Shown here: piece after piece, positions 11,880 to 16,296 of the stretch
Position numbering within the stretch: the first letter of the stretch is position 1
How the letters are laid out: the number at the start of each line of letters is the position of its first letter
From: an uncultured Sphaerochaeta sp.
GTDB taxonomy: Bacteria; Spirochaetota; Spirochaetia; Sphaerochaetales; Sphaerochaetaceae
Assembly (NCBI GenBank): GCA_963677075.1
Contig: OY781873.1
Span: 1,759,715-1,823,714 of the forward strand
Reading direction: 5' to 3'
DNA length: 64,000 bases
The notes under the pieces: model-generated
The model's database searches: none
The model's input: the letters and a program-made list of their open reading frames with translations, nothing else
What the model was told of the DNA's origin: nothing
Made by a program: the position numbers and the translations under genes

Positions 11880-12935
11880 TCAGTGCGCTTTTCCAATACA
11901 ATGGAGAAATGCCGTGGTATAGGAGAGGGTCCCCGTAGGGCAGGCATCCACGCAGTGCCCACAGCCAACACATTGGTCACTGATAATCGGTTTACCGTGG
12001 ATTGCCCGTTCCTTGATGGAAATCGAAAGTGGGCAGGCCTTGTCACATGCACCACAACCAATACAATGAGTCTTTCCTGATTCAATGCGCATTCTTCCAA
12101 GTCGGGAAAGGAATGACAATACTGTTCCCAATGGACAAAGATGGCAGTATAAGCGTCCAACAGAAACAACCCAGAAAGCCATGGCAAGTATTAGGTTTGC
12201 CAATAGATACCAGAAGAGTTCCAACACTCTTACTGTCTGCGTGGTGGTACTGGAGAACCCAATAGTGGGGACAACCAGCCAGAAGCCGGTAAAGAAGAGA
12301 GCAATAAGGAGATACACAATCCTGATGGAACGAAGGTGTTTGAGTGTTCTCTTTTTGAGAGGATGGTGGACCTTGGTCAAGAGAGGAATCGCGGGGTCAA
12401 ATACCTCGGCAGCAAAGCCGTTGAACAGACAGAGATGGGAACAATGGAGACGTCGGCCAAAGAGGACTGTGCTTATACCGATGAGCGTGCTGTAGACCCA
12501 AAAGAAGGTAATTGCCCACCCAATCCCATCCAAACCCAGGGTCGCCTGATGGCTTTGGGCAAATGAAGAGCTGGGAATACCTGCCTGCAATGGTATGGTT
12601 GTCCAGGGGAGGGGCATGGCAAAAAAATAGAGTTCAGGATTGCCGGTGAACAAGGGCAGGAGTATATGGATCATGAGGGCACTAAGGGTGAATCCGATGA
12701 AATTTTTCAACCTCATACCCGCTCTCTCTTTTCGCTTGGCAATACGATAGGTGAGGAAGCCGCATACTACGATGAGAAATGTCTTGAACTGGTTCTCATA
12801 GAAATGCCACCAGGGAGCGACCCGTTCTGCTACCTCGGGAGATCCCCCTTGGTTTAGTGAGGCCAGTACCAGAGAGAACAGTATATAGAGGGCCAATACT
12901 ATCTGAAGAGCCCTGACTTCCCTGGACTGCTTCAT
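11880..12935 (-). CDS. NapH/YccM-like 4Fe-4S membrane protein
   Basis: Multiple TMs, CSHLC and CHLCP motifs, two CxxCxxCxxxCP ferredoxin motifs. Confidence 0.85.
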   Translation of the reverse strand: MKQSREVRALQIVLALYILFSLVLASLNQGGSPEVAERVAPWWHFYENQFKTFLIVVCGFLTYRIAKRKERAGMRLKNFIGFTLSALMIHILLPLFTGNPELYFFAMPLPWTTIPLQAGIPSSSFAQSHQATLGLDGIGWAITFFWVYSTLIGISTVLFGRRLHCSHLCLFNGFAAEVFDPAIPLLTKVHHPLKKRTLKHLRSIRIVYLLIALFFTGFWLVVPTIGFSSTTTQTVRVLELFWYLLANLILAMAFWVVSVGRLYCHLCPLGTVLSFLSRLGRMRIESGKTHCIGCGACDKACPLSISIKERAIHGKPIISDQCVGCGHCVDACPTGTLSYTTAFLHCIGKAH

Positions 12936-13693
12936 GCCACAGGTTGCCTCTTACGAAGGAGAAATACCCCGAAAGAGATGGCAAAAGCTGCAATTGCAAT
13001 TGCTGTCACCGTCAGGATCAAGGGATATTCACCATTGAATCCTTCCTTGGATGTATGTTTGATCATGATGCCGGTGTATGCCCAGACCAAGGTAAGCAGG
13101 TATGCTGGATCACGACGGCGGAATGCCCAAGAGAGAGCGATCAATACTCCTACCACGAGGATTATTGCTGTCCATGTCATCTCGCTGATTCCCCATCCCG
13201 ACCAACCGATGGAGACAAGGAAGGTAGTGACGTTTGCAATGGTGGCTACGGTAATCCAACCAAGGTACACAGAGAAAGGAACCGAGAGAGCCCAATAAGA
13301 GTATCTATCCATGGATGTATGGTCGATCAAGTCATTGATCCTGATCAAACAGACAAGCAGTATCAGCATCAAGAGCAGTGAGAGTCCAATCATTTGATAG
13401 TGCCAGGAGAAAAGCCATGCAATGTTGACCACACTTGAGACCGAGAAAATGATTTGAATGCTCTCATCTCCCTTCCTGAACTGGTAGAACGTATGCAGGG
13501 CGAGCAGCATGTAAATGACTCCCCAGATGGAGAATGTGATTCCTGCAGGTGCAAACAGATTGGGATAGGAATCAGAAACCTCACCGGTGCCCATGCCACC
13601 AATGGGGAGGATGTTTGCCAATGCATTTACCGTAATCATTGCAAGATACGTGAGTGCAACAAGAAAAGCCAAGCCTTTTGCCCGTTTGTTCAT
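12932..13693 (-). CDS. TspO-like tryptophan-rich membrane protein
   Basis: FAPAGITFSIWGVIY, YLGWITVATIAN. Confidence 0.75.
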   Translation of the reverse strand: MNKRAKGLAFLVALTYLAMITVNALANILPIGGMGTGEVSDSYPNLFAPAGITFSIWGVIYMLLALHTFYQFRKGDESIQIIFSVSSVVNIAWLFSWHYQMIGLSLLLMLILLVCLIRINDLIDHTSMDRYSYWALSVPFSVYLGWITVATIANVTTFLVSIGWSGWGISEMTWTAIILVVGVLIALSWAFRRRDPAYLLTLVWAYTGIMIKHTSKEGFNGEYPLILTVTAIAIAAFAISFGVFLLRKRQPVA

Positions 13694-13869
13694 AGAAGCC
13701 TCCTATGGGATCATCTGCCATTAGTGTAGGGTAAGGAAGTGCATCCGTCAAAAGAAATGGAGATTTATAGTCAATTAGGTTATACTGATAGGCAAGTTAG
13801 GAGGAATGATAAAAAGTCAGTAGGTGGTTACTGAGGCTCTGTCTGAAGGGTGTATCATTATAGATACAA

Positions 13870-14037
13870 GGTTGGAAGACAGAGTAGGTGCAAGTTCGAC
13901 ATGTTTGATGGTCGTAAGAGGCCGATTAGGAGAATGAAGAGTTTGTACCGAATCATTCAATGGTCACCGTCAGCGATGGCGGATAGGCCGGATAGGAGAT
14001 TGGACGGAATCACCGAACGGAAGCTGTCTTGCCGACC
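13870..14037 (+). ncRNA. Candidate IS110 bridge RNA
   Basis: 13-bp closing stem (13870-13882 with 14024-14037) and inner stems (GAATGA 13932-13937 / TCATTC 13953-13958) upstream of the transposase. Confidence 0.5.
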
Positions 14038-14058
14038 AAAGCACAAGGAGGCCTTGAG

Positions 14059-15192
14059 ATGGGCAACAAGCAGCGAGAAGAGAAGATTGAACAGTTGAGC
14101 GTAGGGGTCGACCTGCACAAGAGCCAGCTCACCATCTGTGTGATGGGAGAGGACGGGGAGCTGTTGGAGGAAGGGATGTACCGGACCACGACGGAGGGCT
14201 ACCAGGCATTTGTGCAGAGGATGCATGAGTGGGAGGACGAGCGGGGATGCTCGGTCGCCATGGCGGTGGAGACCACCGGCAATGCACGGTACTTCAAGAA
14301 CCGGATGGAAGGCGAGGGGTTCTCCGTGGTTGTGGTGAACACCAACAAGTTCAAGGTGATCAGCCAGAGCACCAAGAAGAACGACAGAGGGGATGCTGCA
14401 ACGCTGGCCTACTACCTGGGCAAGGACATGCTGCCGGAAAGCCACCTGGCGGACCAGAGCAGCGAGGAGCTCAGGAGGATGATCAAGTGCAGGAGCCTTT
14501 TGGTGAGCAGCACGGTGAAGATGAAGAACCAGATCCACGGGATGCTGCTCGGCTACGGGATCACGACCAAGGCAGCCCAGCTGCAGAGCAATAAAAAGCG
14601 GCAGGCCCTGGTTAAAGATCTCGCGGATCAAGGTTTTACAGAGGCCGCCGCATCACTCGAGGTGATACTTGGCATTATAGAAGGTGTGCAGGAGCAAATC
14701 AAGGTCCTGGAGAAGCGCCTTCGGGAGATGACCAGGGACGACGAGGATGTGCAGCTGCTGATGACCATCCCGGGTGTCGGGTTCCTGACGGCCAGCGCGA
14801 TCGCCGCCTACACCAAGGACCTGGACAAGAGGTTCTGCGGGGATTTCAAGCGATTCGCCTCGTACGTGTGCATCGTGCCCTCGGTGCACAACTCCAACGA
14901 GACGGTGCACATGGGCAGGATAACCAAGCACGGCCCGCAGGAGCTGAGAACAGCACTCGTGCAGGCCACAATGGGCATGATACGGCTCTCCAAGATAACC
15001 GGTGAATGGAGGCTGATGACCGATTACCGGGCAATGAAGACGGGCAAGGGTTCCGGCAAGTCAATCATTGCAACGACCAGGAAATTGGCGAGAATCATCT
15101 TTGCCATGCTCCACAACAGGGAACCGTTCAATCCAGCCTTGATGGTGAGGAACAAGTGTCTGTTCACCGTCGAGGAGGTCATAGGGGCTTGA
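14059..15192 (+). CDS. IS110-family DEDD transposase/recombinase
   Basis: GVDLHK, AVETTG, KNDRGDA (D-E-D-D); IPGVGFLTA; IVPSVHNSN retains the C-terminal Ser; AAGGAGG RBS. Confidence 0.95.
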   Translation: MGNKQREEKIEQLSVGVDLHKSQLTICVMGEDGELLEEGMYRTTTEGYQAFVQRMHEWEDERGCSVAMAVETTGNARYFKNRMEGEGFSVVVVNTNKFKVISQSTKKNDRGDAATLAYYLGKDMLPESHLADQSSEELRRMIKCRSLLVSSTVKMKNQIHGMLLGYGITTKAAQLQSNKKRQALVKDLADQGFTEAAASLEVILGIIEGVQEQIKVLEKRLREMTRDDEDVQLLMTIPGVGFLTASAIAAYTKDLDKRFCGDFKRFASYVCIVPSVHNSNETVHMGRITKHGPQELRTALVQATMGMIRLSKITGEWRLMTDYRAMKTGKGSGKSIIATTRKLARIIFAMLHNREPFNPALMVRNKCLFTVEEVIGA

Positions 15193-15270
15193 CTTGACAG
15201 CTCCTATAGTAAAACAAACAAAGGTTAGCAGTTTCCTAACTTTACTGTTGACTTTTTATAGGAGGTATGT

Positions 15271-16296
15271 ATGTATACACCGAAAACAGAACGATATGAT
15301 TCAATGAAATACAACCGCTGTGGAAAGAGCGGATTGCAGCTACCTGCCATCTCTTTGGGGCTCTGGCATAACTTCGGAGACCAGACGTCCCTCTCTAATG
15401 CAAGAAAGATGCTTCATACAGCATTTGATCTTGGCATCACACACTTTGACCTGGCAAATAACTATGGGCCACCTCCGGGGTCTGCTGAGCTGAATTTCGG
15501 CAAGTTGCTTGCCCAGGATTTTCGCTCTCACCGTGACGAACTCATCATTTCCAGTAAGGCAGGGTATTTGATGTGGCCCGGTCCCTACGGGGAGTGGGGG
15601 AGCAGGAAATACCTTCTCAGCAGCCTTGACGCTTCCTTGAAGAGAATGGGGCTGGACTATGTCGATATCTTCTATAGTCACCGTTACGATCCTGATACTC
15701 CACTTGAAGAGACCATGGGAGCTCTTGCTTCCGCATATAAGATGGGCAAGTGCCTGTATGTCGGGATCTCTTCCTATTCCGCAGAGAAGACGAGAGAGGC
15801 ACATGCTATCCTGAAGGATATGGGAGTTCCTCTCTTGATTCATCAACCGTCCTATTCAATGCTGAACCGTTGGGTGGAAGAGTCATTGCTTTCCACACTG
15901 GATGAGTTGGGAGTAGGGACCATCTGTTTCTCTCCACTTGCACAAGGCATGTTAACCGATAAGTATCTGGGAGAAATTCCTGAAGATAGCAGAGCGGCAA
16001 GAAAGGGTAGTTCTCTGAGTGAGCAAATGCTGACAAAGGAAAACCTTGAGAATATCCGGTCACTTAATGCAATCGCACAGGAACGTGGACAAAGCCTCGC
16101 TCAGATGGCGCTTGCATGGTGCATGAGACGTAAAGAGATCACCAGTGTGCTTATTGGTGCCAGTTCGCCTGAACAGATTAAGGAAAATGTCGCAACCCTC
16201 GAGAACCTGGATTTCAGTGATGAGGAACTTAAGCGGATTGATTCCTTTGCAAAGGAAGGAAATATAAACCTTTGGGCAAGGTCAAGCAATAATTGA
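15271..16296 (+). CDS. gpr: Aldo/keto reductase, L-glyceraldehyde-3-phosphate reductase type
   Basis: LPAISLGLWHNFG, THFDLANNYGPPPGSAE, ISSKAGYLMWPGPYGEWGSRKYL. Confidence 0.9.
   Translation: MYTPKTERYDSMKYNRCGKSGLQLPAISLGLWHNFGDQTSLSNARKMLHTAFDLGITHFDLANNYGPPPGSAELNFGKLLAQDFRSHRDELIISSKAGYLMWPGPYGEWGSRKYLLSSLDASLKRMGLDYVDIFYSHRYDPDTPLEETMGALASAYKMGKCLYVGISSYSAEKTREAHAILKDMGVPLLIHQPSYSMLNRWVEESLLSTLDELGVGTICFSPLAQGMLTDKYLGEIPEDSRAARKGSSLSEQMLTKENLENIRSLNAIAQERGQSLAQMALAWCMRRKEITSVLIGASSPEQIKENVATLENLDFSDEELKRIDSFAKEGNINLWARSSNN

Follow-up and report, generated by a model that had tools for sequence, protein, structure and literature searches.

A probable bridge RNA gene in the left arm of an IS110-family element from Sphaerochaeta, with predicted targeting of gene starts

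Bridge RNAs are already known for elements of the IS110 family (PMC11208160). IS1111 elements carry extensions of 7 and 3 nt beyond their sub-terminal repeats, and elements that combine long repeats with an upstream arm are listed as exceptions, e.g. ISMtsp17 (PMC11187229). IS900 targets translation starts, its motif being the same site as that described below, on the other strand (PMC8141618). No guide-level explanation of IS900 targeting was found in the papers searched.

In the window, i.e. the whole stretch of 64,000 nucleotides that was analysed, the segment in front of a transposase gene is very probably the guide ("bridge") RNA gene of an IS110-family element. For the full proposal, a bridge RNA gene of an intact Sphaerochaeta element including its targeting, we estimate a probability of about 0.86. 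Ends, empty sites, fold, covariation and target preference were computed; transcription, protein binding and catalysis we infer. The features are compiled in Table 1.

Table 1. Features of the element and its flanks (window coordinates)
Feature	Position	Strand	Remarks
Host promoter-like site TGGAGA-17-TATACT of the downstream gene	13758..13786	+	outside the element; putative function
Left target half TT-AGGAG, host Shine-Dalgarno site	13797..13803	+	core AG 13802-13803
Whole element	13802..15262	+	1,461 bp, applying the 7/3 convention of IS1111
Right-donor sequence GAATGAT, predicted to be read by the right donor guide	13804..13810	+	also carries the TG of the circle promoter's extended -10
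Left sub-terminal inverted repeat	13809..13819	+	11 bp, perfect; holds the predicted circle -10 TAAAAA (13810-13815)
TGTATC/GATACA hairpin	13851..13868	+	poorly conserved in the given register
Conserved bridge-RNA core	13870..14037	+	168 nt, closed by stem P1
Closing stem P1	13870-13882 with 14024-14037	+	13 bp, one bulge; conserved pairing
Target-binding arm	13887..13949	+	stem 13887-13898 with 13935-13949; apical hairpin 13910-13913 with 13920-13923
Right target guide (RTG) CAT-GTTTG	13900..13907	+	complements the start codon and the bases just before it
Left target guide (LTG) TTAGGAG	13926..13932	+	identical to the 7 target bases up to and including the core
Right donor guide (RDG) ATCATTC	13952..13958	+	multiloop; reverse complement of the left end downstream of the core
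Donor-arm hairpin, variable cap	13962..13989	+	13962-13965 with 13986-13989; 99.5% of cells paired
Left donor guide (LDG) ATAGGAG	13992..13998	+	identical to the true right end 15258-15264
RNA tail: linker and 3' strand of P1	14018..14037	+	includes AGCTGTC; second, covarying complement in the right end
Transposase ribosome-binding site AAGGAGG	14045..14051	+	from sequence
IS110-family recombinase	14059..15192	+	377 aa; Pfam, NCBIfam, fold, catalytic residues
'Right end' of the sequence-only reading	15196..15208	+	internal; CTCCTATA (15201-15208) is the 5' hairpin arm with terminal TATAGGAG
Conserved-position complement of the RNA tail	15221..15235	+	about 12 nt inside the right repeat; -18.2 kcal/mol, ranking first among 31 windows
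Right sub-terminal inverted repeat	15248..15259 (repeat 15249-15259)	+	with the predicted circle -35 TTGACT (15248-15253)
Left donor ATAGG, core AG and right target half	15258..15273	+	rebuilt Shine-Dalgarno 6 nt before ATG (15271)

Three copies of the element were found in the genome, at least 99.7% identical over a common span (13799-15264 in the window) with AGGAG at both extremities (13799-13803 and 15260-15264); all of them finish with ...TTTTTATAGGAG, here at 15264. Empty alleles of copy 3, which match exactly in three genomes, contain a single AGGAG, and so do the empty alleles of the window site in related genomes, which differ in one base. One of the two repeats therefore belongs to the element, and insertion is site-specific at a short core, without target duplication. 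An empty site for copy 2 was not found in five genomes. Aligning copies and empty sites, a check proposed when the sequence was first read, thereby fixed the ends at 13802 and 15262. The non-coding stretch in front of the transposase gene, originally given as about 290 nt, is shorter, since its first 29 nt (13770-13798) are host DNA; the upstream arm thus has about 260 nt (257 nt), and about 70 nt lie downstream of the gene. In the left flanks the first two letters of AGGAG are variable (TGGAG, GGGAG, AAGAG), in line with a crossover at its final AG. A systematic +2 base change in the right flank upon insertion, hinted at by two sites, was dropped because the empty site of copy 3 is exact.

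In 57 relatives the sub-terminal repeats comprise 6-15 perfect base pairs and always start 10 nt from the start of AGGAG. Joining of the ends gives a predicted promoter, TTGACT-17-TAAAAA with extended TG. The host gene downstream of the right end spans 15271-16296, and the -10 box of the promoter-like site outside the left end is kept in the empty alleles of relatives; this site may provide read-through into the left arm. Sphaerochaeta sp. S2 has near-identical copies of the element and S. halotolerans one diverged copy; no relatives were found in the viral contigs searched.

Several other loci deserve mention. Sphaerochaeta sp. S2 (loci L029, L033) carries the same element within the ribosome-binding site of the adjacent gene, which is divergently oriented (12932-13693). 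Positions 13694-13706 of the window (minus strand) are the empty allele of that site, with AT before AGGAG where the filled allele has TT, the guide match. The empty alleles L132-L135, L137 and L139 have GAATGT after AGGAG, a near-copy of the element's left end, and the filled allele of the window has GTATGT (15265-15270), which may be either a strain difference or a change after insertion. A contig binned as Cloacimonadota (L002, JALNYD010000123.1) shows the same insertion and flank as copy 3 and is probably a misbinned Sphaerochaeta contig. One element copy (L011 and L018, G003 contig 309) is split inside the transposase gene by about 3.1 kb of other DNA. At L005:3089-3260, an insertion lacking ATG, a TATAAT lies 16 nt after the element's TTGACT as a possible hybrid outward promoter, and a second left end follows about 90 nt further on.

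The recombinase comprises the Pfam domains PF01548 and PF02371 and reaches 222.6 bits with the NCBIfam model NF033542 (cut-off 140); the DEDD RuvC-like domain and the C-terminal catalytic-serine domain of the broad IS110 family are both present. D18, E71, D109, D112 and S279 align with the catalytic residues of IS621 and are invariant in 44 relatives. The residue following the catalytic Ser is Asn, not Gly. By sequence and by fold, IS621 and ISCro4 are the nearest solved relatives.

With a minimum free energy of -97 kcal/mol (z = -5.4), undercut by none of 200 shuffles, the flagged arm is structured as had been claimed. Relatives were gathered at 44-100% protein identity, and 49 non-redundant left arms were aligned. 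RNAalifold recovered, unprompted, P1 together with a long arm, which has an internal loop and ends in an apical hairpin, and another hairpin; two-sided changes occur in 23 of 27 pairs. The conserved helices pair in 94-99.5% of cells (slid controls 28-44% vs 90%). P1, presumably the 13-bp long-range stem noticed before, has two-sided changes in all 10 consensus pairs and is paired in 93.9% of cells; for the helices of the target-binding arm, which show such changes too, the values are 96.7-99%. The TGTATC/GATACA hairpin noticed at the same time is present here, but only 49% of cells pair in its register, in a part where the alignment is poor. The TAnnnT hexamer at 13853-13858, kept in 43 of 49 left arms and accompanied by no clear -35 box, is a possible weak internal -10 of a promoter for a short RNA beginning near the closing stem.

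With a covariance model, held-out relatives scored 130-215 bits and every one of these hits was upstream of the gene; there was no match at the ISEc11, IS4321 and IS116 loci. The Rfam search yielded no meaningful match (one snoRNA hit, E = 0.85). The single-sequence fold, in which RDG pairs with bases adjoining LTG and P1 is split, was rejected, the covarying consensus being preferred; for the full arm, this type of prediction favours a rival pairing of 13835-13843 with 13877-13885 over the closing stem. In the fold of the whole 1.5-kb transcript neither P1 nor the tail helix appears, the length making such a fold uninformative. A 35%-identical relative on a Tardibacter plasmid (L130:374-1680) also shows guide-like AGGAG motifs in an upstream arm, and a TAGGAG end before ATG; its hit with the model is weak (E 0.025), and the target habit may reach further out.

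Regardless of how long the right arm is, a complement of the RNA tail lies 7-25 nt inward of the right inverted repeat. An exact complement of at least 7 nt was detected in 41 of 54 elements compared to 10.6% of control windows, and with wobble pairs allowed this complement ranked first among 31 windows in 28 of 41 elements. The pairing energy averages -16.4 kcal/mol (controls -9.3, cross-element pairings -12.2, minimum -13.7). Among 529 pairs there are 33 G-U and 12 U-G, and the occurrence of both directions favours a pairing between RNA and RNA. The tail might thus form, in long transcripts, an RNA-RNA helix that competes with P1 (-21.4) as a regulatory or processing switch, a role that we regard as possible, if short of even odds. 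Alternatively it might be that the match acts at the level of DNA, either as a protein-bound inner inverted repeat or as a fifth RNA-DNA guide for additional donor recognition. The near-constant distance from the right repeat suggests a DNA geometry of this kind, and we hold this alternative, too, as a tentative one; the frequent G-U and U-G pairs, however, fit RNA pairing better than a repeat read by protein, and the site lies 28-42 bp from the core.

All four guides occupy unpaired loop positions of the conserved fold. Their order from 5' to 3' is RTG (CAT-N5, from 13900), LTG (TTAGGAG, from 13926), RDG (ATCATTC, from 13952) and LDG (ATAGGAG, from 13992), i.e. the right guide precedes the left one in both halves. 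Positions 1-3 of LTG are identical to the left flank in 63, 66 and 69 of 72 insertions, compared to 28, 29 and 57 after shuffling. Counting one insertion per RNA variant, 36 of 50 match vs 8.4 when shuffled, with a maximum of 19 in 20,000 shuffles, although P values from shuffling overstate the case since the relatives are kin; beyond seven bases there was no match signal between LTG and flank. At its variable position RDG forms a Watson-Crick pair with the left end in 47 of 49 cases and a wobble pair in the other 2. In 45 of 47 elements LDG is identical to the terminal seven bases of the right end, and it switches together with them to ATGGGAG in several separate lineages. The RNA-target covariation across homologues that the sequence-only reading had named as a check is thus present for the guides. 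As in the IS110 family in the broad sense, a structured non-coding RNA has loops that covary with target and donor, and together with the conserved structure this supports the earlier notion of a bridge RNA with a guide layout of its own. Read on the other strand, the core would be CT and the loop topology that of IS621, which may explain the 'reversed order' of the guides.

Neither the target loop nor the nature of the target had been recognised before. The clade inserts co-oriented with the host gene into AGGAG Shine-Dalgarno sites. An ATG follows AGGAG after 5-8 nt in 73 of 88 distinct right flanks (20, 29, 17 and 7 at the respective distances) and in none after 3-4 nt; in the background, 13.8% of genomic AGGAG sites have an ATG at 4-8 nt. 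This ATG opens a frame of at least 50 aa in 58 of 64 sites. Guides containing CAT go along with ATG in 56 of 60 cases, those without CAT in 0 of 4 (Fisher P = 1e-4), a class of only 4 members, one of which (L044) has an aberrant end. Guide position 4 forms a pair with the base preceding ATG in 33 of 56 insertions (18.4 expected) and, per distinct guide, in 17 of 29 (9.3 expected, P = 0.002). A fixed register for the right target guide was tried and proved weak at every spacer (z at most 3.4); anchored at ATG, the register reaches z 5.6. In the three copies of the genome a single guide serves spacers of 5, 6 and 7 nt. Beyond CAT, pairing of the right target guide is weak.

Because of the pairing at position 4, the loss of ATG in the absence of CAT and the better ATG-anchored register, we consider it probable that the CAT guide reads the start codon directly, at a floating distance. 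With matches to the ribosome-binding site as well as to the start codon, the guides would bring the element to gene starts. ATG enrichment also results when the insertions that survive are those restoring a functional ribosome-binding site. It might even be that only the left guide (NNAGGAG) picks the target, that ATG results from selection among survivors and from the accessibility of AGGAG near promoters, and that CAT is structural. Such an explanation would agree with insertions being visible only after selection, with the weak pairing of the right guide in fixed registers, and with the available text on IS621, which describes no floating register. We consider it unlikely, as selection leaves the covariation at position 4, the 0 of 4 ATG without CAT and the empty class at 3-4 nt unexplained, and CAT is unpaired, on the side of the loop where a guide is expected. 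An anti-start-codon guide with a floating spacer was not found in the papers searched, and a search for IS110 together with Shine-Dalgarno or ribosome-binding sites, outside of which most subscription papers and ISfinder lay, returned nothing on this clade. The transposase's own start (14045-14061; AGGAG, 8 nt, ATG) fits the target pattern save for the two bases before AGGAG, so that self-insertion may be possible.

The arm could also be a structured 5' leader only, which controls transposase translation, with the target selected by protein-DNA contacts. Between the tail and the transposase ribosome-binding site there are 8 nt, and alternative folds were predicted, but the loop bases covary with both donor ends and with host flanks that a leader never contacts as RNA; such a function alone is therefore very improbable.

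Two motifs, ATAGGAG (13992-13998) and AGCTGTC (14022-14028), both present at the positions given, had initially attracted attention as complements of GACAGCTCCTAT (starting at 15196), which was taken for the right end. The complementarity exists; GACAGCTCCTAT, however, lies about 55 nt inside the element and is missing from most relatives. It is complementary to ATAGGAG because of a right-arm hairpin with a CTCCTAT arm. AGCTGTC belongs to the 3' strand of P1 and is no core guide; its segment does pair with the right end, at the conserved site given in Table 1. That both motifs read GACAGCTCCTAT as a pair of donor guides can practically be dismissed: they are exact complements of this 12-mer here and in a 90% relative (GACAGCT pairing at -15.1 kcal/mol), but the site is missing from 76% and 72% relatives, GACAGCT being found only in relatives at least 90% identical, both matches fall on one strand, unlike in a bridge loop, and two such 7-mers are at chance level (2 observed vs 1.72 expected, P about 0.47), as had been suspected, so that covariation alone gives them meaning. 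The difference in orientation from the IS621 left-donor guide, reported because GACAGCTCCTAT had been taken as the end, disappears as well: LDG has the top-strand sequence of the actual right end and hence the same orientation as in IS621.

The hairpin itself was detected in 4 of 56 elements including that of the window, where it extends over 15201-15264 (-22 kcal/mol). It is specific to this subclade, a compensated version occurs in L039, and its 5' arm CTCCTAT covers and masks the rebuilt Shine-Dalgarno site. This arm lies 9-16 nt after the transposase stop, and translation of the host gene might therefore be coupled to that of the transposase. For the clade as a whole, a widespread one (Spirochaetota, Bacillota, rumen and digester metagenomes), we put forward as a speculative extension that a split guide, much like a ribosome, reads Shine-Dalgarno site and start codon across a free 5-8 nt spacer with looped DNA, and that in addition a fifth pairing, between tail and right end, switches RNA folds and controls the hairpin over the rebuilt site in the Sphaerochaeta subclade.

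Taken as a bridge system, the element would work as follows. As judged from the family mechanism, it would excise as a circle, whose junction promoter could transcribe RNA and recombinase; in the integrated state both may be supplied by host read-through. In the target arm the left guide would read NN-AGGAG and the right guide the start codon (CAT plus 1-4 further bases), with 5-8 nt between core and ATG being tolerated, presumably via looped-out DNA. The donor guides in the multiloop would read the joined ends, and strand exchange by the DEDD/Ser recombinase would take place at the core, AG on this strand and, as in IS621, CT on the opposite one, without duplication. Thereby the element would land co-oriented between promoter and start of the host gene and its right end would rebuild the Shine-Dalgarno site, so that the host gene can still be translated.

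These data provide a guide-level, testable account of how an IS110-family element finds translation starts; for IS900, such a preference has been known since 1997. A natural guide tolerating 5-8 nt between its recognition halves would bear on specificity and off-target rules of bridge editing, and in anaerobes it might serve as a ready-made tool to insert DNA at gene starts, scarlessly and co-oriented with the gene. The tail pairing is a conserved feature.

In a small, midpoint-rooted tree (31 rows, without IS621, ISEc21 and IS900 itself) the clade is supported at 100/99 and lies outside the 100/100 cluster of ISEc11, IS4321, ISShdy1 and ISKpn2. It is placed on the IS1111 cluster's side of the deepest split (98/98), with IS116, an IS900-like protein and ISEc20 opposite. 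IS1533 may be a named relative of the element.

With the IS1111-group seekRNA/bridge elements (ISEc11, ISKpn4, ISPa11; PMC11187229, PMC11208160) the element shares sub-terminal repeats of 11 bp with 7- and 3-nt extensions, a junction promoter (predicted here), a top-strand match 5' of the bottom-strand match, donor guides in a multiloop and the lack of a target duplication. In contrast to this group, there is no long non-coding region downstream, the RNA lies upstream of the gene, the transposase has 377 aa instead of 330-350 and Ser-Asn instead of Ser-Gly, it falls outside the tight cluster, and the RNA model has no hit at the ISEc11 and IS4321 loci. Common to IS621 and ISCro4 (PMC11208160, PMC11208158; PDB 8wt6, 9t56) are the RNA in the left arm, the target arm in first and the donor guides in second position, the catalytic set, the CT core on the other strand and the nearest solved folds. 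Instead of the 2-3 bp inverted repeats, the left guide before the right one and the simple donor loop of the IS621 type, however, we find long inverted repeats, the right guide before the left on the transposase strand and donor guides in a multiloop; the floating right-target register proposed here and a protein identity of about 21% set the element further apart.

The target of Shine-Dalgarno, spacer and ATG is shared with IS900 and the IS116 subgroup. IS900 inserts against the host gene and uses host signals for its antisense hed frame, whereas the clade described here is co-oriented and rebuilds the site; it also lacks the ~400-aa transposase of that subgroup. As IS116 and the IS900-like protein stand across the 98/98 split, the choice of target may be convergent. 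On a Mycobacterium chimaera plasmid (L158 and L164, 38871-41147) an IS900-like element lies tail to tail with the ATAGGAG end of another IS110 element, and its upstream arm has CATG and then AAGGAG, the same 5'-3' order of motifs. Since one defining feature of each fails, we file the element under neither of the two subgroups. Its mode of action resembles that of an IS1111-type bridge system, and taken broadly it is a member of the IS110 family. Ends and guide order of the IS1111 type combined with an upstream RNA blur the two-group scheme, and the system represents a known mechanism in an unusual layout rather than a new class of mechanism.
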